From positions 1 to 44,904 of IMG/VR virus record IMGVR_UViG_3300016662_000082: DNA of 44,904 nt, one strand, 5' to 3'. Under the pieces are notes generated by a model. The model saw only the letters and a list, made by a program, of their open reading frames with translations, made no database searches and had not been told where the DNA came from. Origin of the DNA: a virus. Lineage: Duplodnaviria; Caudoviricetes. The position numbers and the translations under genes were made by a program. Shown one piece after another: positions 3,803 to 27,835 of this stretch. Each line of letters opens with the position of its first letter. Position 1 is the stretch's first letter.

Positions 3803-4948
3803 ATGGTGAAAAATATGAATAATCGTTATGAATTTTTGATTGTTGGAGCAGGTTTTTTTGGTGCAACATTTGCTCGAAAAGCTACGGATGCTGGCAAAAA
3901 ATGTTTAGTTATTGATAAAAATAACCATATTGCCGGTGCAACCTACGATAAAAAATGGGACAACGGAATAATTGTTGGGGAATACGGCGCACATATATTT
4001 CACACAGCAAGCGAAGAAGTTTGGCAATTTATCAATCAATTCACAACCATACATAATTTCATCAATAAACCTAAAGTTATATCAAACAATCGAGTCTATT
4101 CTTTCCCTATAAACATGATGACTTTACATCAATTGTGGGGCGTAGTAACACCACAAGAAGCATTCAATAAATTACAAGAAGTTAGAATACCCTGCGAAAG
4201 ACCTCGTAATTTTGAAGAATGGGCATTAGATCGTGTTGGCAAAGAACTTTACGAACTATTTTTTTATAGCTACACCAAGAAACAATGGCTCAAAGAACCA
4301 AGCCAACTGCCAGCATCGATCATTCAACGATTACCGATAAGACTCACTTACGAAGAAAATTATTTTACAACCAAATATCAAGGAATGCCCGAAGATGGAT
4401 ACGGCGAAACAGTTAAAAATATGTTGGATGGAATTGATGTTAATCTTGGAGTGGACTTTTTTACCATGCGAAACAATTGGCGTGATTATGCCAAGCATTT
4501 AATTTACACAGGACCGGTAGACAAATTCTATAACTTTGAACATGGCGAACTTGAATACAACACACTAAGATTTGAACATAAAGTTTATAAAGGCGATTTT
4601 CAAGGCAATGCTGTTTTCAATCATGCGGATATCAATGTACCTCATATAAGAACTATTGAAAACAAACATTTCCATGATCGAAGAACAAATAAACATTATG
4701 ATCCAAAAAACTTTGATTTAAATGAAACAGTCGTTACATACGATATTCCTGTATCATACAAAGATCATCCCGAACCTTATTACCCAATTAGAGATGAAAG
4801 AAACAGCGCAATATACGAAGAATACCTGAAACTCAAATCAAATGAACCCGACATTACTTTTGGTGGCAGACTTGGCGAATACAAATACCTTGATATCGAT
4901 CAAACGATTGCCTCTGCTCTGGTTAAAGCAAAAGCTTTTTTTAATTAA
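3803..4948 (+). CDS. glf: UDP-galactopyranose mutase
   Basis: IVGAGFFG FAD motif, YGAHIFHT, YTKKQW, RLPIR, YQGMP, EPYYP, GRLGEYKYLD. Start may be 3815. Confidence 0.95.
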   Translation: MVKNMNNRYEFLIVGAGFFGATFARKATDAGKKCLVIDKNNHIAGATYDKKWDNGIIVGEYGAHIFHTASEEVWQFINQFTTIHNFINKPKVISNNRVYSFPINMMTLHQLWGVVTPQEAFNKLQEVRIPCERPRNFEEWALDRVGKELYELFFYSYTKKQWLKEPSQLPASIIQRLPIRLTYEENYFTTKYQGMPEDGYGETVKNMLDGIDVNLGVDFFTMRNNWRDYAKHLIYTGPVDKFYNFEHGELEYNTLRFEHKVYKGDFQGNAVFNHADINVPHIRTIENKHFHDRRTNKHYDPKNFDLNETVVTYDIPVSYKDHPEPYYPIRDERNSAIYEEYLKLKSNEPDITFGGRLGEYKYLDIDQTIASALVKAKAFFN

Positions 4949-5132
4949 GGAAGCAAGGCCACAAGCACTTGCTTCCTTGTCCTTGTCAGAGAATTTCTCT
5001 AATTTGAAATCCAGCCTGATCGGTGCCTAAAAGCATCCCAATCCTGTATTGGCCTCATTCATCCACAACTACAGGTCAAACATCCATACAGACAGTCGGA
5101 ACCTTAGAATGTTGTAGGATAAGGTAGAATCC
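4947..5132 (-). ncRNA. Candidate GGA-rich small RNA (CsrA/RsmA-sponge-like) ending in a hairpin
   Basis: No credible ORF; 8 GGA on the minus strand (7 within 4974-5085); 11-bp hairpin 4947-4957/4968-4978 at the 3' end. Confidence 0.35.
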
Positions 5133-5147
5133 AAGGATAAATATATA

Positions 5148-6098
5148 ATGTTCAAACTTATCAAAAAGCAAACGATGTCGCCTGTAACTTTAAAGGAACA
5201 TTATTTGAGAAAAGACCGTGTTTTAATCAAAAGAAGAGTCGGCGGATTTGGCGATATTTTGATGCAAAGAATGATGTGGGAAGATTTCAAACTTCAACAT
5301 ATAGACTTAAAATTTACATACGCCTGCCCAGCAAAATACATGGACTTTGCTCTTAACCACCCTTTTATAAAAGTCATAAAAATTGATGATATAAATGAAA
5401 AAGAATATGGAATAATTTATGATATTACAAATTGCTGCTGTGTTTATGAATCACGACTCGGTGCGAAAAATAAAAAACATCGTAGCGACATTTGGGCAAA
5501 CTTTTGTGGAGTAGAACTTCAAAACCACAATATGCATTTACAAGTCGATGATGAGTATAAAAAAATAGTTCAAAAAGGACTATCGGAATTAAACCCAAAT
5601 AATTTACCCATAGTTCTTTTTGCTCCTCGTTCAACAAACTGTGATTATGGAATAGGAAAAAGTTTAACTCACGATCAAATCAAAGAAACAACAATTAAAT
5701 TGTGGGAAATGGGATTTTTTGTGATTTCAGTTCACAATCAAATTATTGAAGCATTTCAAGAACTTGGGGTTCCACAACTGATAAGAATTCATCCTTTAAT
5801 TTGGATCGCACTTACAGATACGGTTGATTATGTTATTTCAGTTGATACCTCCACTTTTCATCTAGCAGGCGGATTAGGTAAAAAACTTGTAGGTATTTTC
5901 ACCTACACAGACGGAAAAATTTATGGAAAATATTATGATTTTGTCTTAGTGCAAAAACATCGTGACAATAGGGATTGGGACTGCGGTCCATGTCTTCTCA
6001 ATCACCTTTGTCCAAAAACAAAAGAGAAACAAAAACCATGTTTAACTGAACTAAGCTCCGATGATATAATCGATGGATTCAAAAAACTAATTATTTAA
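5148..6098 (+). CDS. Glycosyltransferase family 9 (heptosyltransferase-like, GT-B)
   Basis: RRVGGFGDILM, VISVDTSTFHLAGGLGKKLVGIF, and a C-terminal CGPC...C...C cluster. Confidence 0.85.
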   Translation: MFKLIKKQTMSPVTLKEHYLRKDRVLIKRRVGGFGDILMQRMMWEDFKLQHIDLKFTYACPAKYMDFALNHPFIKVIKIDDINEKEYGIIYDITNCCCVYESRLGAKNKKHRSDIWANFCGVELQNHNMHLQVDDEYKKIVQKGLSELNPNNLPIVLFAPRSTNCDYGIGKSLTHDQIKETTIKLWEMGFFVISVHNQIIEAFQELGVPQLIRIHPLIWIALTDTVDYVISVDTSTFHLAGGLGKKLVGIFTYTDGKIYGKYYDFVLVQKHRDNRDWDCGPCLLNHLCPKTKEKQKPCLTELSSDDIIDGFKKLII

Positions 6099-6512
6099 TA
6101 AACAAACCTCTACACCCGATTCTGCGAATAAATTAAGTGACATCTCAATGTCTGAAACCCATCGTGGATTATCACAAACAGGAGCAACAACCCGCTTGAT
6201 TCCTGATTGAATTACCATTGATGCACAAGAAGCGCAAGGCATCATGGGATACACATATAATGTGCAATCTTTTAAACTTTTTTGAGCAAAAAGAATGGCA
6301 TTCCTTTCCGCATGTATTATAATCTTATATTTTATATCCCGATTATTCAATCGCTCATCTGTGTCTTCCACACCACGGGGCAAACCATTGTAGCCTACCG
6401 ACACAACTCTTCTATCAGCATCAACAATAACCGCTCCAACCTTGGTAGATGGGTCTTTTGACGCTGTAGAAATATATTGGGCCAAGCCCAATAACCAATT
6501 ATCCCAATTCAC
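6087..6512 (-). CDS. dCMP deaminase
   Basis: SKDPSTKVGA, GYNGLPRG, HAERNA and PCASC zinc motifs. Confidence 0.93.
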   Translation of the reverse strand: MNWDNWLLGLAQYISTASKDPSTKVGAVIVDADRRVVSVGYNGLPRGVEDTDERLNNRDIKYKIIIHAERNAILFAQKSLKDCTLYVYPMMPCASCASMVIQSGIKRVVAPVCDNPRWVSDIEMSLNLFAESGVEVCLLNN

Positions 6513-6972
6513 TTTTTTCCCTTTTGATCTTACATTTAACTTTTTTTAAGGCATCATAAATAAATTCATATCCGTCATGATTAGGGCCAAAATGTTCTTT
6601 TAAAATATTAACAGCAACAAATCCATTCTTCTTAAAGAAGCAATGCTCTGCCTTTTTTTCATCACTTATAATCAATTTAATTTTATTTTTAATGGTGTTT
6701 TTAAGATAATTTATCATTGCAGAACCAGCACCATTATGCCTATACGCAGGTTCAACAGCAATACTGATCAGTTTATAATATTCGTTCTTAATTTGATACA
6801 ACATGAATCCAATTACTTTGGTTTCATGTTCCACAACTAAGCCTACATAATCCTTGCGTTTCAGACACGCTAAAAAATCGTCATATTCCAATGGAAATTC
6901 AAAACTTTCAAGTTCAATACAGGCAATCCTTTCTAAATCGGACTGCAAGCACCAACGAACTAAAAACTTCAT
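6499..6972 (-). CDS. GNAT acetyltransferase (RimI-like)
   Basis: DLERIACIELESF, VIGFMLY, IAVEPAYRHNGAGS (motif A), FFKKNGF. Confidence 0.85.
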   Translation of the reverse strand: MKFLVRWCLQSDLERIACIELESFEFPLEYDDFLACLKRKDYVGLVVEHETKVIGFMLYQIKNEYYKLISIAVEPAYRHNGAGSAMINYLKNTIKNKIKLIISDEKKAEHCFFKKNGFVAVNILKEHFGPNHDGYEFIYDALKKVKCKIKREKSELG

Positions 6973-7001
6973 CTTATGGCCCTTCCTTGGACAAAGATAA
7001 A

Positions 7002-7151
7002 TTATAGACTTTCAATCAATCGATTGATAATTTTTTGCATGGAATTTGGATTAACATCAGTCAAAAGACTTTGAATTTGAAGGTCCGTCAATTTTTTGTG
7101 CTTGATAAAAAGGCTATAGAGTTTTTGTTTGTTTCCCTTGAAAGTAATCAT
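7002..7151 (-). CDS. Small hypothetical protein, 49 aa (possible HTH)
   Basis: Below the ORF-track cutoff: MITFKGNKQKLYSLFIKHKKLTDLQIQSLLTDVNPNSMQKIINRLIESL, with AAGGAG SD and a sigma70-type promoter upstream. Confidence 0.6.
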   Translation of the reverse strand: MITFKGNKQKLYSLFIKHKKLTDLQIQSLLTDVNPNSMQKIINRLIESL

Positions 7152-7180
7152 AAAGTCTCCTTTGTTAATTGGTACAAATG

Positions 7181-7209
7181 TTTATACCACGCCCAAAGGA
7201 GATTATCAA
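7181..7209 (-). promoter_or_regulatory. Sigma70-type promoter
   Basis: TTGATA-N17-TATAAA with an extended -10 TG. Confidence 0.6.
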
Positions 7210-7476
7210 TCAGTTTTTTACCCTGCTTATAAGCCAGTTATACACCTCTTCAATATCGTCTCTACTAGATGTGATATGATCACTAGCCCAATCATGACCG
7301 TTTGCTAACTCAGAATCTATTTTGCTAACATCCATTTTAAGCATTGCATCAATCTTTTCTTTGATAACCTTGAGGTTTGAAAAAAACATATAATGTTTTA
7401 TTTCTCCATCCTTAGCTTCATGGTATTGTGATTCGTTCATAACACCGGACAAATAAAGAAAATCTTCTTTTTTCAT
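7210..7476 (-). CDS. Hypothetical protein, possibly head-associated
   Basis: 88 aa, GAGG SD, preceded by the late-type TATATA box at 7494-7499. Confidence 0.7.
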   Translation of the reverse strand: MKKEDFLYLSGVMNESQYHEAKDGEIKHYMFFSNLKVIKEKIDAMLKMDVSKIDSELANGHDWASDHITSSRDDIEEVYNWLISRVKN

Positions 7477-7488
7477 GGTAACCTCACT

Positions 7489-8145
7489 TCACTTATATAT
7501 TTTATCAACAACATAATCCATCAATTCATGATAATTTTTAATTCGATCTTCAAGTTGATAATTCAATTTATGATAACCATCTAAAAAATAACTAAACTTT
7601 GATTCGTCAATAACCGAAAGACCACAATATTTCAAAATTTTACGAGCATAGATTTCTTTAGTCTCTGGATTTTCAAACAAATCCTCATAGGAAATTATGT
7701 GAGAGTCTTTAAGAAGACCAATGTAACTTAGATGCATTCTTGCTTGCTTTGCAATTTCAATCACAATATCTTGATTTAATTCATATTTTTTTTCATAATA
7801 GTCAGGATTTACTGCTGTTTTTTTATAAACTTTAGTAGTCCTAGCTAACGCAAGAGATATTGCAGATTTAATCAAATCTTTTCTATAAAGATATATGACT
7901 TTAAATCTTTTTAAAATTTCTATGTTTTGTTCTTTATTTAAATGAAAACTTAAATGCTTGAAACCATCAAATTTATTTTCTAATAAATTCAGCGATCCCA
8001 CAAAATTAGTTTGTGCTATTTTGTAATATTCTTTTTGAAATATTGGGCTGTATGGCTCAAAATTAAAATTTGCACCTTGAGAATTAAGAAGATGCATCAA
8101 ATTAGTGCTTCCGCACCTTGCAAATGAAAAAATTACAAACTTCAT
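7489..8145 (-). CDS. Sulfotransferase (Stf0-like P-loop fold)
   Basis: FARCGSTNL 5'-PAPS loop, FEPY, LYRKDLIKSAIS 3'-PB motif, ISYEDL. Start placed at MKFVIF (ATGA overlap with the upstream gene). Confidence 0.85.
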   Translation of the reverse strand: MKFVIFSFARCGSTNLMHLLNSQGANFNFEPYSPIFQKEYYKIAQTNFVGSLNLLENKFDGFKHLSFHLNKEQNIEILKRFKVIYLYRKDLIKSAISLALARTTKVYKKTAVNPDYYEKKYELNQDIVIEIAKQARMHLSYIGLLKDSHIISYEDLFENPETKEIYARKILKYCGLSVIDESKFSYFLDGYHKLNYQLEDRIKNYHELMDYVVDKIYK

Positions 8146-8768
8146 TTTATTTTTTTCATTACAACACAATCTTTTCCTAATTCACAAACTTTTTCACAAA
8201 ATTGCATCAAATAATTAAATCCTTTTTGTGTAGTTGGAGAAATACTTCCGTCCATCCATGTAGTATCATCAAAAAATATAAAACCACCGACTTTGACTTT
8301 GGGATAAAACAATTTTGCATCTTCAAAAGCATTTTTCTCAGAATGATTTCCATCTATATGAAGCAAATCAATTTGTCCATCCTCAAATTGCTTTACAGCT
8401 TGAATTGATTTTTTTCTTAAAACTTTCACATATTTGCACAAATTCATACTTTTTTTAAGATTTATAAAATGATTATAAATTTCTTCCATTGGAACTTTTG
8501 ACCAAAAATCTAAGTTTTTGTCATTTTTCATTTCTTCTAATGCAATTTTATTACTCCAAGGATCAATTCCATAAATAAAACCAGCGCCATTATTTTTTAA
8601 AGCAATTGCTTGAGGGAATAAAGACGATCCGCCGAAAACTCCAATCTCAACACAGCATTCTAATTTATTTTTAGTAATTATTTCAAAAAGCTTCATAGCT
8701 TTATCTTCAGAACACCAGCCTTTAACAGCCTTTGCTTGATTATTTAAATAAATTTTAATATTTTTCAT
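8142..8768 (-). CDS. Class I SAM-dependent methyltransferase (Methyltransf_24)
   Basis: VEIGVFGGSS, GIDPW, IDLLHIDGNH, VKVGGFIFFDD. Confidence 0.9.
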   Translation of the reverse strand: MKNIKIYLNNQAKAVKGWCSEDKAMKLFEIITKNKLECCVEIGVFGGSSLFPQAIALKNNGAGFIYGIDPWSNKIALEEMKNDKNLDFWSKVPMEEIYNHFINLKKSMNLCKYVKVLRKKSIQAVKQFEDGQIDLLHIDGNHSEKNAFEDAKLFYPKVKVGGFIFFDDTTWMDGSISPTTQKGFNYLMQFCEKVCELGKDCVVMKKIK

Positions 8769-9453: not shown

Positions 9454-10989
9454 TTATGCCTCATAAGTGTTTTCTAATGCATCGTCGCCTTTAAAACCTC
9501 GCTTACTACGCTGTTTTTTACCAGAAGGCTCACCGACAGCATCCATATTTACTTCATCGGCTTTCTTTTCTTGGACAAGGTTCATTTGTTCTCTGTATCT
9601 TTCCTTGGAAATCTCAAACATATCCAAGGTTCCTAACTTGTAATCAAATCCAATCTTAAAAGCAAACCTTGATCGACCATTACGATGTTTAATCACAAAA
9701 ACACGACCAACTTCGGCATCCTTCTCTAGAACCTGTTGATTGATGCTCCAAAATGCATCTAAAGGCTTGAACTGATCAAAACTTGTGCCGATATTTCCTT
9801 CGTCAATAAACTGGCCTATTTCCAGCTTTGCAGCGGATTGATTGGGCTGTACGCAAGTAAAAGTACAATGCCCCTTTTCAACACCAAAACCACGCAGATC
9901 ACGCAAAATTCGATACGCTGATTCGTACTTCTTGACGGAAGGATCGTCTTTCATTTCTCCGACATAATCAAGAATCAAAAGATTGGGTTTGAATCCACGC
10001 AATTCTAATTGCGCCATAAAAGCACGAATACCGTTCACATCAAGTTGACCGCCGGGAAATTGTTTTACATGCAATAAATTTGGATCATGCTTATCTTTCT
10101 TAAATTCCTCAATCATGTGTTTGATTTCATCTTTAACACCACGAAGATTGTTGATGTCCATTTTAGCAAATTGACTAGTAAATCTTTGAGTAATACCCAA
10201 TTCATCCATTTCAAGCGTGATGTATAAAACCTTGTGTCCCAAAAGAACATTTTGTACTGCCGCTTTTACCAATGCTAAAGATTTACCTGTACCCGGCAAA
10301 CCAATCCAACTTGCAATTTGACCAGCAAACAGTCCACCACCAGTTAATGCATCATCAATCGACGGAAAACCTGAAGTAAATCTTTCTTTGCCTTCAAAAA
10401 CATAATCCATTCGAGTGAACATCTCATCGATGTTCATGAAATACTCAAGTCCCGGTTCATAAGACCTGTCAACAAGCATGGCTTGTCGCATTTTTTCATA
10501 GACAAAATTCCAAGTTTTCTCGTCTTCTGGCGATTCATTCATCTTTTCAGCACATTGATGAAAAGCAATTTTTACAGCTTGAACCTTGGCAAAATAAGTT
10601 ACTTTTTCAATAAGATATTCTCTAGATTCAAGACCCGGTACATAATATGTGTAAAGAGATTTAAGTTCAGACAAATAATGCAAAAGAACAGACTGGTCAC
10701 GATCTTTTAAAGAGGAGCGCAGTTCATTGGCAATAATAAATTCATCTGGGATGACAGCCTTTGTAATGAATTGTTGCAGTAAAATTTTAGAAATGATTAC
10801 ATGGGCTTCATTGCTAAAATAGTCTGGCTTTATTTTATCAACCGATTGAATTAACATAAATCGATCTTTAAGAAGCATTGCCAAAAGTTTGCGCTGAAAT
10901 GTGTCGTCCCAAGCAAATTTTGGCTTAACAACTTGAGAATCTGTCATTGACTCAAGTTGCGCTTGTTCTTCCGGTGTCAAATCACGCAT
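9454..10989 (-). CDS. Replicative helicase, DnaB/T4 gp41 family
   Basis: SGFPSIDDAL, Walker A GLPGTGKS, YITLEM, LILDY Walker B, IKHRNG arginine finger. Confidence 0.93.
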   Translation of the reverse strand: MRDLTPEEQAQLESMTDSQVVKPKFAWDDTFQRKLLAMLLKDRFMLIQSVDKIKPDYFSNEAHVIISKILLQQFITKAVIPDEFIIANELRSSLKDRDQSVLLHYLSELKSLYTYYVPGLESREYLIEKVTYFAKVQAVKIAFHQCAEKMNESPEDEKTWNFVYEKMRQAMLVDRSYEPGLEYFMNIDEMFTRMDYVFEGKERFTSGFPSIDDALTGGGLFAGQIASWIGLPGTGKSLALVKAAVQNVLLGHKVLYITLEMDELGITQRFTSQFAKMDINNLRGVKDEIKHMIEEFKKDKHDPNLLHVKQFPGGQLDVNGIRAFMAQLELRGFKPNLLILDYVGEMKDDPSVKKYESAYRILRDLRGFGVEKGHCTFTCVQPNQSAAKLEIGQFIDEGNIGTSFDQFKPLDAFWSINQQVLEKDAEVGRVFVIKHRNGRSRFAFKIGFDYKLGTLDMFEISKERYREQMNLVQEKKADEVNMDAVGEPSGKKQRSKRGFKGDDALENTYEA

Positions 10990-11038: not shown

Positions 11039-11404
11039 TCAAGCCAGATCAGTATCACGACGCCTAAAATACCAAAAAATCAATCTTGCAAGATTATGAG
11101 CATAAGGAGTCAGGGCTTTATTTTGCATCAATCCTTTTATTTTTTTAGCAAATGCAGAATCAGCAGAAATAGTTTCCGGCGATTTAAACAAACTTAATGG
11201 AACAGCCGCTTTCCAATCTTTTCCTGCTTTACAGTAATCAATGTCATGTTGCCTACAAGCAGAATCCAAAGGATCAATTGGTTTTGGCAAAGGAGCATCA
11301 TCAGCCAGCTTATCGCAATCCGGTTGCTTTAATTTGGGACCGGGACCGCAATAAACGCCGTACCAATTCTCGTTTTTTTGATTTAACCACTCGGAAAATT
11401 TCAT
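11039..11404 (-). CDS. Phospholipase A2-like protein with a capsid-targeting-like N-terminus
   Basis: Ca-binding loop YGVYCGPG and catalytic DxLDxACxxHDxxY (PIDPLDSACRQHDIDY). Start set at MKFSEWL, 4 nt after TATAAATA. Confidence 0.8.
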   Translation of the reverse strand: MKFSEWLNQKNENWYGVYCGPGPKLKQPDCDKLADDAPLPKPIDPLDSACRQHDIDYCKAGKDWKAAVPLSLFKSPETISADSAFAKKIKGLMQNKALTPYAHNLARLIFWYFRRRDTDLA

Positions 11405-11408
11405 ATTA

Positions 11409-11416
11409 TATTTATA
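11409..11416 (-). promoter_or_regulatory. T4-type late promoter TATAAATA
   Basis: Exact T4 late consensus immediately before the PLA2 start. Confidence 0.6.
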
Positions 11417-11427
11417 ACAGAAGGAAG

Positions 11428-11525
11428 AAAAAAGGTGGCGCACCGCTATTCATGCCGCATAATAAAAAAATATAATCATCTATTGACCTCAATAATTCGG
11501 CAAGACGATGAACTACACCACCTTT
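11428..11525 (-). terminator. Structured RNA element or terminator closing the polA-sigma unit
   Basis: AAAGGUGGUGU/GCGCCACCUUU 11-bp closing helix, inner UGCCG/CGGCA and UAUUGA/UCAAUA pairings, ending in a U6 run. Confidence 0.5.
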
Positions 11526-11537: not shown

Positions 11538-12092
11538 CTAATTTTGCAAATAGTCAAATTCACTTAAGGAAACCATTCCGCTACGAATTGATTTTTCTCT
11601 AGTTATCTTCTTGCCCATCGACTTTTGTCCGTTCCAGACAATTGCCTTGCAGTATGTGGCAAATTTTGAATCAATTTTTAAAGGGGCATCCTTAATTGGT
11701 TGCTCCTCTTTCGGAACCATTCTTCGAACAATTTTATCTAGTAAATTTTCTTGATGCTTGCCAAACTTTTGCCTATTGGCTCCATGCCTTGTTCTATTAC
11801 TCCAAAGATTTTCGAGTTCTTGAACAATTTTAAAAACAAATTTATCATCAGCATGTTTTTTTGCAGCAGCCAAGCATTTTTCAATATAAATCTGTCGTTT
11901 ATAATAGCTTCCAGCACGAAGCATACTCATCTGCAATTCTTGTTTGATGTCTTCGGCATCATCGAGGAAGTTGTTATTTGAATTTTTTCTTTTTAATTCA
12001 TGTGCAGCACACCAGCACAACTTAGAAAATTTTTTGTCGAGTTCAAGGAATTCTTTTTCCGTAATTGGAAAATCATGAATAATTTCACGCAT
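11538..12092 (-). CDS. Sigma-70 region-2-only factor (no region 4)
   Basis: DAEDIKQELQMSMLRA resembles region 2.2 (DL.QEG.IGL..A); SKFATYCKAIVWN resembles region 2.3 (KFSTYA.WWIR); ends shortly after VSLSE. 184 aa, TAATG-coupled to the polA-like gene. Confidence 0.6.
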   Translation of the reverse strand: MREIIHDFPITEKEFLELDKKFSKLCWCAAHELKRKNSNNNFLDDAEDIKQELQMSMLRAGSYYKRQIYIEKCLAAAKKHADDKFVFKIVQELENLWSNRTRHGANRQKFGKHQENLLDKIVRRMVPKEEQPIKDAPLKIDSKFATYCKAIVWNGQKSMGKKITREKSIRSGMVSLSEFDYLQN

Positions 12093-13414
12093 TATGACCC
12101 TTTTCTTACCAATGGCTTCAGACTACTTAAATTTCTCCCAGCACGACAAGCCACTTTAAGTCGTAAACCGGGGCACAATACCGATTCGCCAGTCAAGACC
12201 TCAAAACCAGTCGCAAATACTTGCTTCCAGTTGTCTTTGGTGGCATAAACAACAAATCCGTCATGAACAGTATAAGAAATATCTGCCTTGCCTTTCAACG
12301 CAAAATAAAGACTTATAAGTTTTTCGGAACATATCGTGGCAGCAGGAGCTTGAACACAAAAATTGCGAACAAGGTATTCTTTGCCAGATTCAAAATTAAC
12401 TCTACGCTTCCCAAATATGTCTTTTGCGTAGCCTGTTTCACGAAGCTGTTGCTCATAACTTGCCACAAACCTCAAAGCGGTCGGAAAAAAAGAACTAATT
12501 CGTTCCACAACACGCTCGGCTATGTCCATTGCAACCCCACATCGTTGCGACAACGAGTAGGCGGACTGCCCGTATATATGCGGAAGAAAACATTTTTTTG
12601 CGAATTCCCTATCTTCTTTACTGACAGGCTCTTTATCAGTCAAACAGCGATATAATTCAGAATAAATATCAGTTTCCCTACACAGTCTTTGCAAAAGCGG
12701 GTCTTTACTCATCCATCCCAACATATAAACTTCCATGCCCTTAAAATCAAAAAGCATGAAAAGTTCATCCTGAGTTCTTGTTTTTAAAACCTCCTTCTTT
12801 TCCGGTTTCAAAGTGTGAGGCAGAAAACTATGCTTAAAAGCATCAAAACAACGAAACCGACCATTTTCCTGACCATCAATCTCATAATGGCTATAAGCCA
12901 TAGATTGTTGGTCTGGATCAATGATGCCAGTAGTTTCAATGTTAGGCAAAACAGTTGTAATGAGAGGCAAATGTATTTTTCTATAAATTGATTCTATTTC
13001 TTTCCAAATTCCCGATGAAACTATATTTCGCAATCTGTTTAAAGCTTCAGTTAAGTTTTCTGGAGATTTTTCTTTTATACCACTATAAGATTCAATAATC
13101 TTAAGATCAATAATAGAACAATCAACAACAAATTCTGTTTTAGTAACAAACTTTACATACGAAACAAATGATTTCCAATCCCAAGATATTACTTTTCTAT
13201 CTTTTGAAAACAAAGAAAGTTGAAACATACTCAAAGTTAAATATATGTTATCCGGCGTGAGCGATACAACAAAGTGCGATTCTTGGCCCGTAAAGACTTC
13301 AATCTGTGCGGGCGACTCCAAATCCGTAAAATCAAAAACAGCGGGGTTAAAACGCAAATAAACGCTTTTGGCGTCAACGCTGGTCAAAAGGTTTGCGAGT
13401 TGGCTGTAATCCAC
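12092..13414 (-). CDS. Minimal family-A DNA polymerase-like protein (thumb deleted, degenerate exonuclease)
   Basis: Motif A FDFKGME, motif B REFAKKCFLPHIYG, motif C TVHDG, NGRF (TGRL equivalent), DIFGKRR, RNFCVQAPAA; only 440 aa. Confidence 0.85.
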   Translation of the reverse strand: MDYSQLANLLTSVDAKSVYLRFNPAVFDFTDLESPAQIEVFTGQESHFVVSLTPDNIYLTLSMFQLSLFSKDRKVISWDWKSFVSYVKFVTKTEFVVDCSIIDLKIIESYSGIKEKSPENLTEALNRLRNIVSSGIWKEIESIYRKIHLPLITTVLPNIETTGIIDPDQQSMAYSHYEIDGQENGRFRCFDAFKHSFLPHTLKPEKKEVLKTRTQDELFMLFDFKGMEVYMLGWMSKDPLLQRLCRETDIYSELYRCLTDKEPVSKEDREFAKKCFLPHIYGQSAYSLSQRCGVAMDIAERVVERISSFFPTALRFVASYEQQLRETGYAKDIFGKRRVNFESGKEYLVRNFCVQAPAATICSEKLISLYFALKGKADISYTVHDGFVVYATKDNWKQVFATGFEVLTGESVLCPGLRLKVACRAGRNLSSLKPLVRKGS

Positions 13415-13420: not shown

Positions 13421-13449
13421 ATTATGCAAAGGCGATGAAATTGAGTCAA
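13421..13449 (-). promoter_or_regulatory. Sigma70-type promoter giving a leaderless polA-like mRNA
   Basis: TTGACT-N17-CATAAT, 6 nt before the GTG start at 13414; no SD. Confidence 0.65.
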
Positions 13450-13564
13450 GTCAAAAGCAAGTCAGATCAAACTTATGAATTCTGCTTTACAATAGAATTA
13501 TACACCGGGGGGCTGTCTCAAAGTAACGCATTGCATTAGAAATGTATAATACTTATACACTTCA

Positions 13565-13958
13565 AGAGAAGATGAAAATTAGTAGTGTGAAATCTTTTGG
13601 TGTTTAAACCTACTCAATTGCATTACTCTTTTCATTCTCCTGCTATGATCCTTTGTAGTGATGCTAATTTGTGTACTTTTGGGTTGGCATCCAAAATCCA
13701 AGCAGTCAATGCTCTTGTCGCTCAACATTGAATCAGCCATTAGGTCTGCTCGGCGTTCACCTCTACCAACTGTGTGACAATGCCTCCCGTAGCGGCATTC
13801 ATTGTAGAACAACTACAAAGTCTCACCCTGTTAAGGGCCACACAGGTTTTTACATCATTGCTTTTCAGGAGGTACAACACCTGATTGCAATAAAGGGACA
13901 ATAGAGTGTCCTTCTCAGTAGTTAGAAAGTTTCTCGACAAGTAGCCTTTCGGCTTCAT
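13565..13958 (-). ncRNA. Candidate large structured non-coding RNA (~400 nt)
   Basis: More than ten helices found by eye, a GAAA tetraloop, several pseudoknot pairings, G-U wobbles that work only on the minus strand, its own promoter, and no credible ORF. Confidence 0.65.
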
Positions 13959-13960
13959 AA

Positions 13961-13988
13961 ATCGTAATACCTTAATCATCAAAGTCAA
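13961..13988 (-). promoter_or_regulatory. Sigma70-type promoter for the candidate ncRNA
   Basis: TTGACT-N16-TACGAT just upstream of the first hairpin AGCC-GAAA-GGCT. Confidence 0.5.
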
Positions 13989-14051
13989 GTTCAACAAAAA
14001 ATTGTCTGCGACTCATTGATAACTTGCAATCAACCAATCTTGTGGAGTAAC

Positions 14052-14780
14052 ATGGCTGAATCAAATCAAGAGGATGAACCTTTGAACTTTGATGCTATAG
14101 CAAAATACAATATGACTGATATTGAGATCAAAGCATATAAAATAACTATGCTATGGCTTGATAGAAGTAGAAAACTATTTCCTGACTATCGCCACTCTAC
14201 AATGAAAAAGGGTGACCCACGCAAATCTCTTGTATTTAAAATTTGTTTTAAACTTGTTCGTGAAACTCAAGGTGTGTTAGAAGACCAAGAATATCCTCTC
14301 TATGTTCGTGCTCAACTCGAAGTTTTAAAATATGTTAACGCTGATCGGGTTGACCCTCTCATCGATCCTAATTGCCTTGTAGGAGAAAAAGCATGGAAAA
14401 GATGGAAACTTTGGAAAAAGAAATATGATAGTTTGTCTAAATCATCTGCACCTGTTGCTACAAACATCGGAATTGCTAAGGCAATAGATGGATTGGAAAA
14501 GACTAAAGAATTTTTGGTTAAAACATTCAGTTCAGACTTGTCTTTTAACCGATTTCAAGAATCATATTTAAACAATAACATATTTAGATGGATTAACTTA
14601 AATAAGATATCACCATATTATATTGCAATTTCTCCATACATTAAAAAACTTTTCAACGAAAACGATTATAAAAAAATAAATTTTGATACGCAAGTTTATA
14701 TGACTTGTATAGATCAATCAGTTATTGATAAATTCAATCAATTATTTGTCGAAGAATCAGATTTCAAGAGCACGACCTAA
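14052..14780 (+). CDS. Hypothetical protein, possibly a gp59-like helicase loader
   Basis: ATG 14052 has a GGAG SD. AYKITMLW, KAWKRWKLWKKKYDSL and NIFRWINLNKISP recall T4 gp59 (VYKLYLM...YIFKLLQSNIIS). The ORF is solid; the function is tentative. Confidence 0.45.
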   Translation: MAESNQEDEPLNFDAIAKYNMTDIEIKAYKITMLWLDRSRKLFPDYRHSTMKKGDPRKSLVFKICFKLVRETQGVLEDQEYPLYVRAQLEVLKYVNADRVDPLIDPNCLVGEKAWKRWKLWKKKYDSLSKSSAPVATNIGIAKAIDGLEKTKEFLVKTFSSDLSFNRFQESYLNNNIFRWINLNKISPYYIAISPYIKKLFNENDYKKINFDTQVYMTCIDQSVIDKFNQLFVEESDFKSTT

Positions 14781-15702
14781 TTTGTTTGTGCATTGGGCTT
14801 GTGTATAACATATAATCAAGAATTGCTGTTCTGATATACAAACCATTCCTTACTTGTCTTTCGTGATAATCTGCTCTTGGATCATCATCAATATCCTCGC
14901 TGATTTCTTCATTTCTTGGCAAAGGATGCAAAATTGCCGCATTTTCTTTGACATATTGAATATTTTCTTTATTTATTTTGAAGAAATCAATATTATCACA
15001 AATGCCTTTAAATCTTTCTTTTTGAATCCTTGTCATATAAATAATGTCAATTTCTGGAAGCACATCGTTTGCGTCACAAATTTCAACATTTTTGCAAGGA
15101 ATTTTTTCAAGATATTTTTCTGGAATGCTTAGATCGCAGTTATTATGGTCTGTTGCTGCACAGTAATAAATTTTTAATTCATATAAATTAAGAAGTTCGA
15201 TAAGGCTATGAATTGTTCTTCCGTTTTTAAGGTCGCCACACAACATAATTTTCAAACCATTGATATTTTTCCATTTTTGTTTAATTGTATGAAGATCAAG
15301 AAGTGCTTGTGTTGGATGTTCACCAGAACCACTACCCGCATTTATAACTGGAACTCTTGAATAGGCTCTGGCAACCTCTGGCCACGACGAGTCGCTATGT
15401 CTCATGACAATAGCATCTGCATATTGTCCAAGAGTTCTAAATGTATCTTTAAGGCTTTCACCCTTGGTTAAACTGCTGCTTGAAGATGCATCTGCGGCAG
15501 TAACAATTCTCCCGCCAAGCCAATGCATGGCTCTTTCAAAACTAAATCTTGTTCTAGTTGAAGGTTCAGCAAAAAAACTAGCAATACACTTGTTGTTCAT
15601 TTGGCGACAGTAAGTCCAATTTTTTTCAATTTCTATCGCAATTTCAAGTATCTTTTCAATTTCTTCTTTATTAAAGTCTGAAATAGAAAGGAAATGTTGC
15701 AT
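14764..15702 (-). CDS. pyrB: Aspartate carbamoyltransferase catalytic subunit
   Basis: FAEPSTRTRFSF, KGES, VMRH, EHPTQALLD, GDLKNGRT, MTRIQKER, HPLPR: catalytic motifs intact. Confidence 0.96.
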   Translation of the reverse strand: MQHFLSISDFNKEEIEKILEIAIEIEKNWTYCRQMNNKCIASFFAEPSTRTRFSFERAMHWLGGRIVTAADASSSSSLTKGESLKDTFRTLGQYADAIVMRHSDSSWPEVARAYSRVPVINAGSGSGEHPTQALLDLHTIKQKWKNINGLKIMLCGDLKNGRTIHSLIELLNLYELKIYYCAATDHNNCDLSIPEKYLEKIPCKNVEICDANDVLPEIDIIYMTRIQKERFKGICDNIDFFKINKENIQYVKENAAILHPLPRNEEISEDIDDDPRADYHERQVRNGLYIRTAILDYMLYTSPMHKQIRSCS

Positions 15703-21369: not shown

Positions 21370-21514
21370 TACAATTAAAAAATTGCCCTTTTTTGTATTG
21401 CTTTTTATTCTTAGCATAATTTACTTAGCTTGTGGCTATATCGCAGGCTATTACATTGGATACAACCAAGGTCAACAAGACTATTTTAATTTTATTGAAA
21501 ATGTCATGCGATGA
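21353..21514 (+). CDS. Small single-pass membrane protein
   Basis: Hydrophobic FFVLLFILSIIYLACGYIAGYYIGY with GxxxG repeats; ATGA overlap with the next gene. Confidence 0.6.
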   Translation: MSKVYDTIKKLPFFVLLFILSIIYLACGYIAGYYIGYNQGQQDYFNFIENVMR

Positions 21515-22179
21515 AAAATAATTTTTTGATTCTTGCCCACGCTCGAAGTGGCAGTACAACATTAGCAGAAATATTTGAAAGCCAAAACCAAACGGTTTCA
21601 TTTGAACCATTCAATGCTCACAACCATCGTGGAATAAATTATTTGGATCATTGGGGCAAAGAAGGATTTGAATCAGCTTTTGATCTTATTCTTGCAAGTT
21701 ATAATGGAATAAAACATCTTTACAGTTTCACAAATTTTGATCAAACAAAATACATGAAATCTAAGTGCAATACAATTTTCTTATACAGAAATAATTTACT
21801 CGATGCAGCTTTGTCTTTGGAATTGGCTTTTAAAACAAATGTGTGGATGAAAGCACAGAAAAACCATGAATATTTAAAAGAAAAAGTAAATATAAAAATA
21901 GAAAAAATTCAAGGTGCAATATCTAATCTTCGCACACACCTAAAAAATCTTGATGATACTTGTTACAAAATATCTTACGAAGATTTATACGGATTAAATG
22001 GTTTCGACATAATAAAAGAAATATTTAAATTTACTAATTGTCCTATTAAAAATGAAAGCCTGATACATGAACTTTTGAATAAAAAAAATAAATTAAATAA
22101 TCGTTCTTGGTGTGAAGTAATTGGTAATTGGGACGAAATAGCATCCATAAATTTTGGTAATACAGTTTTTATGGATTAG
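21511..22179 (+). CDS. Sulfotransferase (Stf0-like), paralogue of 7489..8145
   Basis: HARSGSTTL, FEPFN, LYRNNLLDAALS, ISYEDL. Confidence 0.87.
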   Translation: MKNNFLILAHARSGSTTLAEIFESQNQTVSFEPFNAHNHRGINYLDHWGKEGFESAFDLILASYNGIKHLYSFTNFDQTKYMKSKCNTIFLYRNNLLDAALSLELAFKTNVWMKAQKNHEYLKEKVNIKIEKIQGAISNLRTHLKNLDDTCYKISYEDLYGLNGFDIIKEIFKFTNCPIKNESLIHELLNKKNKLNNRSWCEVIGNWDEIASINFGNTVFMD

Positions 22180-23740
22180 TTTTTGTCATCTCAACATAAA
22201 TGCTTATTTCAGGGAGATAATCCATAGTCTCCCTGATAATTTCTGGATGACCTTCATTAAATCTTTTTCTTTCAACTTGGAATCCAACCAAGTTTCCAAT
22301 CTTTGTTAAACTGTTGATGTCGTAAGCAATTTTATGATTATCAAATAAATATGACCAGAATTTGAATGACTCTTGATCATTGGAAGCGGCATTTAAGTTA
22401 ATTTCATCAAGTTCATGCAATTTGCCGTTAAGGTATTTCTTAACCATTAAATCTAAATCAGGAACGGCAATACGCATCACCGCTCCAGCTTTCATCACAC
22501 GATAACATTCTCTAAGGAAATTCAATCCTTCATTCCAATCCAAATGCTCCAACATATGGCTTGAGACAATTAAATCAACGCTATTTGATTCAAATGGGAA
22601 AGTTCCTCTGCTGTCCATCTGTAAAAATTTATATTGATTTGCCATAGCATAAGAGCTTAAATCAATCACATCGGTATTGATCCAGCCATTGTGCAGCATG
22701 ACTGTGAAGCTGCCAATATTTAATTTAAGTTTACCATTACCGGCGGGAACGGCGAAAGGCAAAGAACCATCAACTATTTCATCATTGCCTAGAAAATATT
22801 GATTTTCCCAATTCAGCTTTAACTTATTCGTGTCAACTGAATGTATGCCTCTTTTGCATACACGATTTGCTTCTTTTAATACTTGTGGAATAATTTCAGG
22901 ATTCAAGTAGTCAAGGACACCTTGAGAAAAACACAGATCAAATTGCTTGTCCTCAAATGGCCAAGGAATTTGTCTAATATCAATTTTTTGAACTGCATTT
23001 GTGACTCTTGTGAGCCAACAATGGTCAGAAATCTCTAATCCAAGTGCCGTAATTCCATGAGATTCAAATCTTTTCAGTAAATAACCACGACCGCATCCTA
23101 GCTCAAGAATAGATGACGGATTTTCTTGCATGAGAGTATTGAAAACAATCCAGTTCGTTGGATGATCACGATAAAATCCTGTGTTTTCTCCGTAAAAATT
23201 CATATTATCAAAATATTCACGGTCAAACTTAATTTCACCTGTTGTTTTTTGTACCTCTATTATCATGTCTGTGCCTAAAGCCCCATGTGGCACAACAATA
23301 ACATTTCTAAATCCTGCTTCTGTCAAAAGCTTGATTGCATACCTTGGATTAAGACTATTACGATGCGTGTTTTCTGGATAATCTTGGTCACCAAATATAA
23401 TGCAGGAACAATCATCGTTCCATTCATCATGATTCAAGACATATTTCATTTGTCTTTCTGTGTTTGCAGTAATGAATACTGCTTTTCCATTCTTCTTCAA
23501 AATCCTGAAAACTTCTGAAATAAAAAGTCTTACTTTACGCCAGCTAAGATGTTCGATGCAGTAGCAACTGAATACGCCATCATAATCTTCATCTTTAAGT
23601 GGCAAAACATCGTTAAAATCAGCAACAATATCAATGTTTTCGCCAGACCTAACATCAAGATTGGGACGGAAATATGGCCTGTTGCCACCGCCCAATTCGA
23701 TGACTTTATGTTGTGGTGTAAATGGGATAGTGTAACTCAT
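22169..23740 (-). CDS. Triple-domain class I SAM methyltransferase
   Basis: Three motif sets: VIELGGG..YCIEHL, ILELGCGRG..GVLDYL, LNIGS..HMLEHL. Start placed at MSYTIPF (ATGA overlap). Confidence 0.85.
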   Translation of the reverse strand: MSYTIPFTPQHKVIELGGGNRPYFRPNLDVRSGENIDIVADFNDVLPLKDEDYDGVFSCYCIEHLSWRKVRLFISEVFRILKKNGKAVFITANTERQMKYVLNHDEWNDDCSCIIFGDQDYPENTHRNSLNPRYAIKLLTEAGFRNVIVVPHGALGTDMIIEVQKTTGEIKFDREYFDNMNFYGENTGFYRDHPTNWIVFNTLMQENPSSILELGCGRGYLLKRFESHGITALGLEISDHCWLTRVTNAVQKIDIRQIPWPFEDKQFDLCFSQGVLDYLNPEIIPQVLKEANRVCKRGIHSVDTNKLKLNWENQYFLGNDEIVDGSLPFAVPAGNGKLKLNIGSFTVMLHNGWINTDVIDLSSYAMANQYKFLQMDSRGTFPFESNSVDLIVSSHMLEHLDWNEGLNFLRECYRVMKAGAVMRIAVPDLDLMVKKYLNGKLHELDEINLNAASNDQESFKFWSYLFDNHKIAYDINSLTKIGNLVGFQVERKRFNEGHPEIIRETMDYLPEISIYVEMTKTNP

Positions 23741-24747
23741 GACAATAGCTCCTTCCAAACATTAAGGTAAAGCGGTTTTACCTTTTCCCAAGTATATTCT
23801 TTTGACCTATATTCTGCGTTTTTGGAAAACTGCTCTCTCAAATTTTGATTTTTTCTTAAATTGTCAATACATTCGGCAAGTAATTTAGAATTACATTTGT
23901 TGAAGACAAGTCCGCAATCTTCAACCACATCACTAGCACCAGCGCCATCACTAACTACAACAGGTCTACCTGCGCTCATTGCCTCAAGAACTTCAATCCC
24001 AAATCCTTCTGTTGCGCTAGGTTGCACATATAATGAACATGAATTGTAAAAATCTTCAACAGAATCCACCCAACCCTCAATGCTGATATTGCCTTTTCCA
24101 AAATGCCTAATGAGAGGCATGAGCATAGGAGTTTGACTTCCAGCCAAACTAAGAATAGCATCATGGTAATTCAGTATCGACCATGCCTCGATAAGATATC
24201 GAATACCCTTATCTGGACCACATTGTCCCAAATATCCAACTGTGAATGTTTTAGGAGTTCTTTTATTTTTTACTGGTTCATGACCATGTGGAATAATCGT
24301 AGTTTTTTGAATTCCATATCTGTTGTTAATTTCTTGTGCAATCTTAGAAGGGCATATCACTAAGTCCGATTTCTTATAAGAAGAAATGTACCTCTCAAAC
24401 AAATCTTTATTGTTCAAATGTGGAAAATTAAAATTCATTTTCAAACATTGAAATTCACTCCTGCTCACATCGACATCATGTGCCGCTACTGTATAGGTCA
24501 CCTTTACGCCAGAATCCTTTAGCTTCTGAACAAGATTGGGGAAAGTACCACCATAGAAATGTGCAAGTTTGTATGTCGAAAAATCTTGCCCAAGTAGTGC
24601 TTTTTCTGCGTCAAATGGATCGGGTGTGGATTCAGGATTAAGAACATCAACCGAACCAAGGGTCGTCAATGCTTCCAATTCATATTTCGTGACCTGTCCT
24701 CCACCTGTGATAGAGCCAATTCGATCATTTGTCACATATAGGAACAT
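23737..24747 (-). CDS. Glycosyltransferase family 4
   Basis: GQCGPDKGIRYLIEAW, PSATEGFGIEVLEAMSAGRPVV. Confidence 0.92.
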   Translation of the reverse strand: MFLYVTNDRIGSITGGGQVTKYELEALTTLGSVDVLNPESTPDPFDAEKALLGQDFSTYKLAHFYGGTFPNLVQKLKDSGVKVTYTVAAHDVDVSRSEFQCLKMNFNFPHLNNKDLFERYISSYKKSDLVICPSKIAQEINNRYGIQKTTIIPHGHEPVKNKRTPKTFTVGYLGQCGPDKGIRYLIEAWSILNYHDAILSLAGSQTPMLMPLIRHFGKGNISIEGWVDSVEDFYNSCSLYVQPSATEGFGIEVLEAMSAGRPVVVSDGAGASDVVEDCGLVFNKCNSKLLAECIDNLRKNQNLREQFSKNAEYRSKEYTWEKVKPLYLNVWKELLS

Positions 24748-24748
24748 T

Positions 24749-25399
24749 TTACTTCCTCAACTTGAGAAAACATGAAATATGAGGCAATCCTTTTGTGTTC
24801 AAAATCGCTTCATTTAGAGTTATTGGATCGCCTGCTTTTAGAACCTTACCATTGATTGTAATTTCTTCACAAACACCAAGGCTGAATATTTCTGTTTGAA
24901 AATCTTGGATTATTCTGTCTAAGAGATTGGCCCAATCATAAACACGCCAATGAGGTTTTTTTTCTACAAACTTGCCTCCAAAAGGAGTAGTCACATAACA
25001 AGTTCCACCGGGCTTCAACAAATCGTAAATATAACGCATGGCTAGAACATCATAAAAATCATGCGTTCTGCCTTCTTCGTAAGTGTTTAGACCCAAATGT
25101 TCTATGGCAGAAATAATGACGGCAGAATCAAAAGTGCCAATATTTTCACGAAGCCATTCTGGTGGCATTCTGCAAAAATCTGCTTTGATATGATTATAAA
25201 TTGGTTCTTGATCGCAATCTCTTAAATCAACTCCTGTGACATTGAAACCACTTTTTGTTAAAATACTTGAAATTGGACTGTGTTGAGAGCCAATCTCAAG
25301 GATTTTTGCTCCTACTGGTTCGTCAAAATCACGAAAAAATAAATCCGCTTCAGGATCAAATATTTTATATTCTTCTTTTATTTGTTGAGGAATTATCAT
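24749..25399 (-). CDS. Class I SAM methyltransferase (DUF268-like)
   Basis: ILEIGS, GVDLR, ISAIEHLGL, LLKPGG, TPFG, RVY. Start placed at MIIPQ (ATGA overlap). Confidence 0.8.
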   Translation of the reverse strand: MIIPQQIKEEYKIFDPEADLFFRDFDEPVGAKILEIGSQHSPISSILTKSGFNVTGVDLRDCDQEPIYNHIKADFCRMPPEWLRENIGTFDSAVIISAIEHLGLNTYEEGRTHDFYDVLAMRYIYDLLKPGGTCYVTTPFGGKFVEKKPHWRVYDWANLLDRIIQDFQTEIFSLGVCEEITINGKVLKAGDPITLNEAILNTKGLPHISCFLKLRK

Positions 25400-26103
25400 A
25401 TATCCCAAACTTTCAAACAAATAGTTGCAAGAATACAACCACCGGGAAATTTAGCGGTATAATACTTGTCATCTTGAAAACCTGATATTCCAAATAATTG
25501 GAGGATTTCTGCTCCATCTTCTGGCTTCATGTAGAAATCAAATTGTGTCTCTCCCGGCTCCAATACAATGTCAAATGTTAAATAAAATTCTCCGCCTTTT
25601 TTCAACATATTGAGCATATTGCCAATACATGCGAACCTTATGTTTTTATCTTGAATATGTTCAAGAACTGATAAGCAATAAATTTTGTCAAATTTTTCTT
25701 CTGTCCTGAGGCTTTCTATTGTGCTGTTGTAAAACTCAATGTTTTTGAAACCAAGTCTTTCAGCGGATTTAATTGACTTATCAAGGTAGTCTTGGTTCAT
25801 GTCAATAGTGACTACCTTTTGACACCTTTTTGCAAGAGCATACTTAAAAACGGCATATGCTCCTCCTGCATCAAGACAAACATCAGTAGGCTTCAAATTA
25901 CTGTGACTAAGTGCCCAAGGATATTCATATTGTCTGCTCCAATGCAAACTGGTGAGGCTCGTATTGGAAATTTTGTAATTTAGAGAAGCTTCTTCTTCTG
26001 GCACAAATTCACAACATTCAGGGCATTGAATGTCGTAACTACAGAATTCCCTGAGTAAATTTACATCAGGACAACCATAAGCATAAGAAATATGAATTCT
26101 CAC
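25396..26103 (-). CDS. Class I SAM methyltransferase
   Basis: WSRQYEYPW, CLDAGGA, FDKIYCLSVLEHI, LKKGG. Confidence 0.85.
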   Translation of the reverse strand: MRIHISYAYGCPDVNLLREFCSYDIQCPECCEFVPEEEASLNYKISNTSLTSLHWSRQYEYPWALSHSNLKPTDVCLDAGGAYAVFKYALAKRCQKVVTIDMNQDYLDKSIKSAERLGFKNIEFYNSTIESLRTEEKFDKIYCLSVLEHIQDKNIRFACIGNMLNMLKKGGEFYLTFDIVLEPGETQFDFYMKPEDGAEILQLFGISGFQDDKYYTAKFPGGCILATICLKVWDI

Positions 26104-27158: not shown

Positions 27159-27814
27159 TAGGCTTTGATCTCCAATGGTTTGAAGGTTCCGCCGATGCTG
27201 CTTTCACCAAAACCGGCATGGCGACATTGAATTCCTGTATCAACATAAATTTTGTAACCGTGGTTTCTTGCGTGTTTGCAGAATGTGAAGTCTTCGCTTG
27301 TTCTTTCAAGATGGGGCAAATCAGTCCTGTCACAACGCCATTCAAACCAACGGCAACGGGCACTTAAAGGTTGAAGGCTATTGAGGACATCACGATGAAT
27401 AAGAAGGCAACCAGCACCCACATAATCGACTTCAATTAGGTCAGGAGCATTGAATTCTCTTATCCATTGAGGTCCGTGTTCTGAATCACGAAGCATGACA
27501 GGAACAATTGGCTCGTATCTTCTGTAATACAAACCGCTTACAATAGGTTTTTTATGATTTAGAAGCCTCATAACGGCATCTGGTGGAGGAATAACATCAT
27601 CATCAAGAAAAAAGAGCCATTCCCAACCTAATTCAAGGAGTTTTTGACAACCTGTGTTTCGTGCATGGTCGAAGGGCATACCGGAAAGTCCGGTTATTGC
27701 CCCCGGAATTTGCAGATTTCTTAGACCAAATGCCCAAGCAACACTTGCCGATTCTCTTGTTAATATGCAGCAAAGAACTCTATTTTGATTGATTAGTTCC
27801 CATGATCCCGGCAT
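27158..27814 (-). CDS. Glycosyltransferase family 2-like (GT-A)
   Basis: ARN, FFLDDD, VSGLY, GAGCLLI, SEDFTFC, CRH. Confidence 0.85.
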   Translation of the reverse strand: MPGSWELINQNRVLCCILTRESASVAWAFGLRNLQIPGAITGLSGMPFDHARNTGCQKLLELGWEWLFFLDDDVIPPPDAVMRLLNHKKPIVSGLYYRRYEPIVPVMLRDSEHGPQWIREFNAPDLIEVDYVGAGCLLIHRDVLNSLQPLSARCRWFEWRCDRTDLPHLERTSEDFTFCKHARNHGYKIYVDTGIQCRHAGFGESSIGGTFKPLEIKA

Positions 27815-27835
27815 TTTTTATGGCCCAATATTATT

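Follow-up and report, generated by a model that had tools for sequence, protein, structure and literature searches.

A family of knotted RNAs directly upstream of a thumb-less phage DNA polymerase gene, with a possible role at a replication origin

INTRODUCTION

What occupies the gene-free gap in front of a short phage DNA polymerase gene, and what might it do there? The locus lies in a 44,904-nucleotide (nt) stretch of viral DNA (Duplodnaviria; Caudoviricetes; record IMGVR_UViG_3300016662_000082, positions 1 to 44,904), here called the window, which also carries gp32-like, DnaB-like, helicase, and tail-fibre genes. The gap separates a divergent 254-aa gene from a gene for a 440-aa family-A polymerase. 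A first-pass annotation, made from the letters of the window only, had placed a large multi-pseudoknot noncoding RNA of no recognized class in this gap (13565-13958) and had suggested a ribozyme-scale fold or a conformational switch. Here, we describe the extent, relatives, and genomic setting of the element and weigh the functions that it might have.

RESULTS

Covariation supports a knotted RNA element in the gap.

Loci were gathered via the flanking proteins, and the element was then followed with an iterated DNA profile. Removal of near-duplicates left 35 relatives with a mean identity to the window of 49%. The formal covariation count used 21 of the 35, the subgroup that aligned best (MAFFT). 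The relatives' profile, the alignment, and covariation together describe a minus-strand element at about 13955-13500, longer than first proposed. We infer both ends; the element reaches about 13500 because two conserved knots tie its core to 13515-13506. Its parts are as follows.

13500..13955, minus strand: predicted noncoding RNA, about 455 nt, with seven knots
13935..13941, minus strand: 5' strand of knot 1, CUUGUCG, pairing with the loop at 13720-13714 (covariation)
13896..13916, minus strand: mini-knot GAG/CUC and hairpin GGACA/UGUCC (covariation, mutual information)
13855..13893, minus strand: two-stem hairpin whose loop UGUAC pairs with GUACA at 13676-13672, forming knot 3 (covariation)
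13759..13847, minus strand: core junction of ACCU/AGGU, GUGUG/CACAC, and three hairpins (covariation)
Core to 3' end, minus strand: loop CGGG at 13789-13786, pairing with CCCG at 13509-13506 (covariation)
13698..13753, minus strand: stem CCGAGCAG/CUGCUUGG, enclosing GGCUG at 13738-13734 and a stem at 13731-13706 (covariation)
13738-13734 with 13515-13511, minus strand: GGCUG pairing with CAGCC (covariation)
13539..13696, minus strand: knot joining UUUUGG to 13608-13603; also a variable A+U-rich rod and a hairpin (folding, covariation)

The segment 13565-13958 had a folding-energy z-score of -2.05, and 2 of 100 shuffles folded as well. For 13500-13955, the two strands scored -2.84 (minus) and -3.25 (plus) against 60 shuffles. 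Folding was therefore modestly better than in shuffled sequence but did not discriminate between the strands. In the 21-sequence alignment, a 99-pair model with seven knots was paired in 80.0% of 1969 cells, compared with 67.8 ± 0.6% for shuffled controls and 38-45% for slid partners, a control that is inflated because the model was drawn from the same sequences. The model pairs covaried: 73 of the 99 had changed on both sides, a number reached by 0 of 500 shuffles. When mutual information was calculated blind across all 35 relatives, several model pairs were among the top ranks, and the strongest pair, 13908-13899, fell within the mini-knot/GGACA region. Covariation, rather than folding energy, makes the case for the predicted element.

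Every strand named in the first-pass annotation was present in the sequence where it had been placed, and most of the proposed helices held up. The long-range pairing CUUGUCG/CGACAAG was 73% paired, with four of its seven pairs changed on both sides. Covariation also supported the GGACA/UGUCC hairpin, the stems at 13893-13855 (58-62% paired, with four relatives lacking the 5' domain), the GUGUG/CACAC core junction, and the stems CCGAGCAG/CUGCUUGG and UCAAUGUU/AGCAUUGA. The pairing GUUGGUA/UGCCAAC (13770-13764 with 13689-13683) was supported as well, though a register that differs from one relative to the next left it only 53% paired in the alignment. Several pairings had been missed: the GAG/CUC mini-knot, UGUAC/GUACA (78% paired, five of six pairs changed on both sides), ACCU/AGGU and CGGG/CCCG to 13509-13506 (both 100% paired, with swaps from G-C to A-U), and GGCUG/CAGCC to 13515-13511. 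Two other proposals gained no support from covariation: GCUGAUU/AAUUAGC was 51-60% paired, and the 9-bp alternative CUUUGUAGU/ACUACAAAG was 64.5% paired with only three cells changed on both sides. UUUUGG, proposed to pair with CCAAAA (71.2%), has its partner at 13608-13603 (85.7%) in most relatives. The suggested conformational switch loses ground here, as its alternative pairings get no support from covariation. In one relative (L285), the variable 3' rod contains a tandem duplication of about 40 nt.

Searches with Rfam 15 (GOLLD, ROOL, HEARO, group I, RNase P, and others) at the gathering score returned 0 matches in the window and 0 in 11 related loci. At E values up to 10, there were four weak matches in the window, all outside the element. 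ARAGORN models for tmRNA and tRNA genes found 0 genes, and blastn of the element against 50,697 phage records gave no match. An 85-aa open reading frame at 13740-13997 was rejected as coding, with no Pfam match and with non-triplet insertions at that place in relatives. The literature searched, which left most subscription papers outside, held no description of the RNA or its context. A short piece of it could be among the candidates of PMC10690425, which are at most 151 nt long; supplementary files 1, 2, and 4 of that source lay outside the search. The RNA family is real and was found in neither Rfam nor the literature searched, which bears out the original claim of a large multi-pseudoknot noncoding element.

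The first-pass annotation had also raised the possibility of a ribozyme; such an RNA might, for example, cut after the two repeat segments described below or make its own primer end. The tertiary structure is of ribozyme scale, and no phage RNase H family was matched in the five partial records searched. Set against this, no Rfam ribozyme matched even at an E value of 10, the 21-sequence alignment has few invariant bases, and nothing in the analysis points to RNA catalysis. We regard a ribozyme as most improbable.

The RNA directly precedes a short family-A polymerase gene.

The likeliest function of the RNA comes from two links absent from the first-pass interpretation, the adjoining short polymerase gene and a step in strand skew at the locus. 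The neighboring genes are as follows.

12092..13414, minus strand: family-A DNA polymerase, 440 aa, catalytic motifs kept and most of the thumb missing (motifs, predicted fold)
11538..12092, minus strand: 184-aa protein, probable sigma domain 2 with an insertion (fold match)
9454..10989, minus strand: DnaB-like replicative helicase (family match)
14016..14780, plus strand: divergent conserved 254-aa gene, with T4 gp59 helicase loader as a weak lead

The polymerase retains the motif A Asp, the motif B Arg/Lys/Tyr-Gly, and the motif C His-Asp; after alignment to KlenTaq, D223, R269, K273, Y281, G282, H384, and D385 were invariant in 17 sequences. Its predicted fold is Klenow-like (pLDDT 91, Z 31.6, rmsd 2.9), the 440 aa spanning KlenTaq 301-832 with 389 aligned. 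A full thumb subdomain is absent from the predicted fold, which has no helix of at least four residues between 163 and 203. Of five records, four encode DnaE and none encodes PolB; a separate DnaE indicates that the short polymerase is accessory. In three records (G001, G003, G005), the DnaE polymerase domain is split between two genes 5-10 kb apart, and in G004 it is in one piece. A DnaG zinc ribbon was found in one of five records.

The polymerase gene is followed by the 184-aa gene, one further gene, and the helicase, and gene order in this replication cluster is conserved among relatives. In the viral set, every one of the 57 distinct polymerase loci has the 184-aa gene next to the polymerase gene; in three further loci the 184-aa gene lies near a contig end. 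The 184-aa protein matched SigB (VIA Z 7.6, rmsd 3.9, 80 aligned), a score in the range of common helical arrangements. Many sigma factors were within its top 50 matches, and Foldseek and PDB profile searches did not place it. It is likely a sigma domain 2 with an insertion, with middling support. The 254-aa protein gave T4 gp59 helicase loader an Atlas score of 0.80, a lead only, and had no Pfam or PDB match. Elsewhere in the window, a phospholipase A2-like open reading frame is found at 11039-11443, and large sets of glycosyl-, methyl-, and sulfotransferase genes are found at 3803-8768 and 21511-29684. An aspartate/ornithine carbamoyltransferase gene (14764-15702) is kept near the locus in many relatives.

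Among 76 distinct regions upstream of this polymerase, the window included, 48 contained the element, and every homologue directly precedes the short polymerase. A core-pattern scan blind to protein gave 56 hits; 30 were rejected as chance matches, and all 26 true homologues lay before the polymerase. A pattern for the 5' domain matched 0 viral contigs. The longest contigs with relatives measure 381 kb (viral set) and 463 kb (metagenome set). Genes inserted at the locus lie upstream of the RNA. One locus, near-identical to the window, repeats 112 bp within the polymerase gene (L266:3423-3534), likely an assembly artefact.

A promoter-like site marks the 5' end of the RNA.

Two sites resembling sigma70-type promoters flank the element.

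13961..13988, minus strand: promoter-like site, boxes TTGACT and TACGAT with a 16-nt spacer, immediately ahead of the 5' end of the RNA (consensus match)
13421..13449, minus strand: second such site, ahead of the polymerase gene, boxes TTGACT and CATAAT with a 17-nt spacer

At the level of consensus matching only, an upstream site of at least 9/12 was present in 26 of 35 relatives, compared with 26% of shuffles, and a site of at least 10/12 was present in 13 of 35, compared with 4%. None of the 35 relatives had such a site inside the RNA. The upstream site tracks the 5' end, being 65-67 nt before the core in relatives with a truncated 5' end and about 100-160 nt before it in most others. The site before the polymerase gene was weakly enriched (18 of 35 relatives versus 31% of shuffles). 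In the model, G-U cells outnumbered A-C cells (161 versus 84), which favors the minus strand. The element is likely an RNA gene transcribed from the upstream promoter-like site.

The structure might instead act as single-stranded DNA at an origin. Folding energy does not pick a strand, and the corresponding slot of a distant branch carries tandem 9-bp repeats and short perfect hairpins, as such an origin might. A DNA structure does not account for a promoter-like site that follows the 5' end even in truncated relatives or for the excess of G-U over A-C on one strand, and we consider it highly improbable.

Beyond the RNA, a palindrome, TGATT-N4-AATCA, lies 20 nt past the 3' knot in one branch (L021, L054, L055, L072, where it occurs twice, and L290). 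The window's branch has a half-site, ATTGTA, at that position (13493-13488 in the window). These may be protein-binding sites.

Two segments of the RNA are kept identical.

The RNA contains two copies of one 5-mer.

13820..13824, minus strand: segment c1, GAGAC, predicted to pair with template DNA at c2 (identity to c2)
13506..13519, minus strand: segment c2, GAGAC at 13519-13515, followed by the 3' strands of two knots (identity to c1, covariation)

The two segments were identical to each other in 28 of the 35 relatives, in seven different 5-mers, and ranked first among 113,523 pairs of 5-column windows. Identity failed in the other seven, one six-member branch and L303. The segments are 305 nt apart in the window and 217-429 nt apart in relatives. 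In the model, c1 is single stranded and is flanked 5' by a hairpin. The alternative, that c1 has a complementary partner within the RNA, was judged only by eye and from mutual information. The RNA strand facing c2 was 76% pairable, showed no double change, and was mismatched in the window itself; it varies among relatives in which c1 and c2 still match each other. Such identity, with no covarying partner in the RNA, would be required for pairing with the complementary strand of the DNA. At 5 bp, such an RNA-DNA hybrid would be weak, and the 76% pairability means that a folding switch could contribute.

The facing strand bears on a second alternative, that the element is a cis-regulatory leader, riboswitch-like or protein bound, that controls the polymerase, sigma, and helicase genes while c1 and c2 compete, as the RNA folds, for a single partner strand. 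The RNA lies on the same strand as the polymerase gene, 63-229 nt before its start codon, with no terminator-like site between the two, and the partner strand is pairable with c2 to the extent given above. However, that partner drifts while c1 and c2 do not, the gene has the second promoter-like site in front of it, and a leader leaves the protein swap and skew step described below unexplained. We judge a leader to be very unlikely.

Proteins take the place of the RNA in other branches.

The same polymerase occurs without the RNA in 28 of the 76 loci. In a quick IQ-TREE version of the polymerase tree, the RNA family fell in one group of 51 rows (support 94), which includes six rows with other noncoding content. 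Outside this group, the slot upstream of the polymerase held a 371-402-aa protein with a family-A palm in five RNA-less loci and in LR756511 (L309 was left out of this count). This protein was found in none of five partial records with a noncoding slot, and a profile comparison of the slot polymerase with the short polymerase gave no significant match. In three other loci, the slot protein had a weak match to a primase domain (E 9e-5), below the cut-off. Truncated family-A polymerases beside helicases have been proposed as primases, and primase activity has been shown for CcPol together with its partner MP (PMC2579912 for the proposal; PMC10061031 for both). Read most simply, these data suggest a slot whose product provides the first primer, an RNA in one branch and a protein in others.

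Slots with further contents were also observed. In L001, L003, L004, and L184, the region from about 600 to 100 nt before the polymerase holds another kind of element that looks structured, with the motif AATGGGCCGAC ... TAGCGGCTA; these phages are far apart on the polymerase tree despite this common motif, and the element is possibly a second, exchanged RNA type. The last 310 nt before the polymerase in L117 and L121 contain short perfect hairpins closed over a CGAAG loop, with about ten tandem 9-bp repeats in L117; the slot looks like an origin at the DNA level. Noncoding slots of 450-800 nt with hairpins, unmatched by the family profile, were present in L096, L188, L189, L194, L199, and L200. 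Distant relatives of the slot polymerase are carried by LR756501-LR756504 and LR745206, which at 635-735 kb are the largest huge-phage records in the collection.

Strand skew changes at the locus.

Skew was measured as G+T at fourfold sites on the polymerase strand, averaged over both gene orientations, in eight long records that are related and mostly partial. In all eight, it was higher downstream of the polymerase start (+0.047 to +0.192) than upstream (-0.119 to +0.038). In the window, the sign changed in both orientations, from -0.087/-0.069 to +0.193/+0.128. The best change point lay within 2 kb of the polymerase start in five of the eight records and within 10 kb in seven; in a 595-kb record, it was 43 kb away. 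The distance for G001 was 15 kb with one baseline and 0.65 kb with another. The raw cumulative GC minimum of G008, at 88,534, fell inside the RNA (88,307-88,762). Skew of G versus C alone ran in the opposite direction in G001, G002, and G008. The RNA family is carried by only three of the eight records (G001, G005, G008), and the step is also present in G004 and G007, which lack the RNA, so that it is a mark of the locus rather than of the RNA itself. The step fits a replication start, which is indirect evidence. The downstream arm, in the direction of transcription, was the stronger in all eight records, marginally so in G003.

The direction of the stronger arm bears on an RNA-templated primase. 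In this reading, the RNA and the thumb-less polymerase would assemble into a particle resembling telomerase. With c1 as template, it would make a short DNA that anneals to the displaced strand at c2 and primes synthesis back toward the promoter. Such a particle accounts equally well for the identity of c1 and c2; c1 is unpaired and preceded by a hairpin, an RNA could fit where the thumb is missing, and primase-like proteins replace the RNA. Yet the stronger arm follows transcription rather than leading back toward the promoter, the repeat is lacking in seven relatives, and 28 of 76 loci have the polymerase without the RNA. We consider this mechanism unlikely.

DISCUSSION

The promoter-like site, the skew step, the identity of c1 and c2, and the predicted primase-type polymerase found in the same slot of relatives that lack the RNA lead us to propose that the RNA is a ColE1-like origin primer, which would mark and prime a replication origin of huge phages and be extended by the thumb-less polymerase. 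We give this proposal an even chance of being right. The sigma70-type promoter would make the transcript, and folding of the RNA would pull the 3' knot strands off the template. Single-stranded c1 could then pair with the freed template DNA at c2, much as the G stretch of ColE1 RNA II does with the template C stretch, and the run-on tail would stay hybridized as an R-loop. The short polymerase may extend the RNA end toward its own gene, after which the DnaB-like helicase and the phage DnaE would take over.

The primer RNA of ColE1, RNA II, is about 550 nt long and, as its pairing requirement implies, would hold the same run twice. Transcription from a ColE1 promoter yields an RNA whose persistent hybrid with the template is the start for extension by a family-A polymerase; pairing is required between a stretch of rG in the primer and one of dC in the template (PMC4412123). 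The proposed system would share a promoter-driven transcript, a template-pairing stretch, and extension by a family-A polymerase, and the RNA is of similar length. It differs in belonging to a phage, in its seven covarying knots, in a variable 5-nt segment instead of a G run, and in a dedicated phage polymerase without most of the thumb; no sequence link to ColE1 was seen.

T4 replicates with PolB, unlike these phages, which carry DnaE. One resemblance to T4 lies in the neighbors, as the window encodes gp32-like, DnaB-like, and UvsW-like helicase families. The T4 origins oriF and oriG combine a phage promoter with an R-loop primer, and PMC4412123, where it treats the T4 origin transcripts, describes a promoter plus an unwinding element and not a conserved folded RNA.

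The architecture of the short polymerase matches that of divPolA1, which has an intact palm, a truncated thumb, and an inactive exonuclease and is second to a regular polymerase; the passages that describe divPolA1 mention no RNA (PMC11348598, Yutin et al. 2024). The 441-aa product of gene 1 of MW353176, a presumed divPolA1 member, shares 23% identity with the short polymerase (HHalign 82%, E 1.1e-5); tblastn and profile searches did not find it. divPolA1 is only a distant relative. The loci also differ: the space upstream in MW353176 is taken up by a 323-aa gene, and the RNA profile has no match in this phage. This cultured phage was rejected as a test system for the RNA, having a one-way skew, no RNA match, and no neighbor-profile match. 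Truncated family-A polymerases tied to a helicase are also known as TV-Pol and CcPol-MP, and CcPol, with its short thumb, needs a partner to prime (PMC2579912, PMC10061031). There the partner is a single-stranded-DNA-binding (SSB) protein; the short polymerase instead has an RNA gene beside it.

GOLLD and ROOL occur in phages and prophages. They are large, knot-rich RNAs (PMC12286853), as is the present one, and a stand-alone ornate RNA of their type could act away from the DNA and be in the cluster through synteny only. The size and knot density are comparable, the RNA has its own promoter-like site, and gene order in the cluster is conserved anyway. Unlike GOLLD and ROOL, the present RNA has no Rfam match and has a fixed tie to the polymerase and the skew step. 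It is never found apart from the polymerase, and a stand-alone role would leave the c1-c2 identity, the skew step, and the polymerase swap unexplained. We find such a role quite unlikely.

A bolder reading is a ribonucleoprotein primase of RNA and thumb-less polymerase, in which the knotted RNA would replace the thumb, find the origin via c1, and either prime directly or template the primer as telomerase does. This idea is unlikely. If it were true, the RNA would be exchangeable in evolution with protein primases, and a huge phage would start its replication with an RNA-programmed machine.

Many huge-phage genomes show bidirectional or one-way replication skew patterns (PMC7162821), and the literature searched held no description of how huge phages start replication. 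If the origin-primer proposal is true, one answer would be a primer RNA unrelated to that of ColE1, which works with its own short polymerase and can be exchanged for a primase protein. The second polymerases with truncated thumbs in large phages, so far unexplained, would then have a suggested role as well. Large structured RNAs of bacteria and phages are few, and their functions are mostly open; the RNA described here has a concrete, testable proposed job, and the c1-c2 pair is suited to a test by compensatory mutation.
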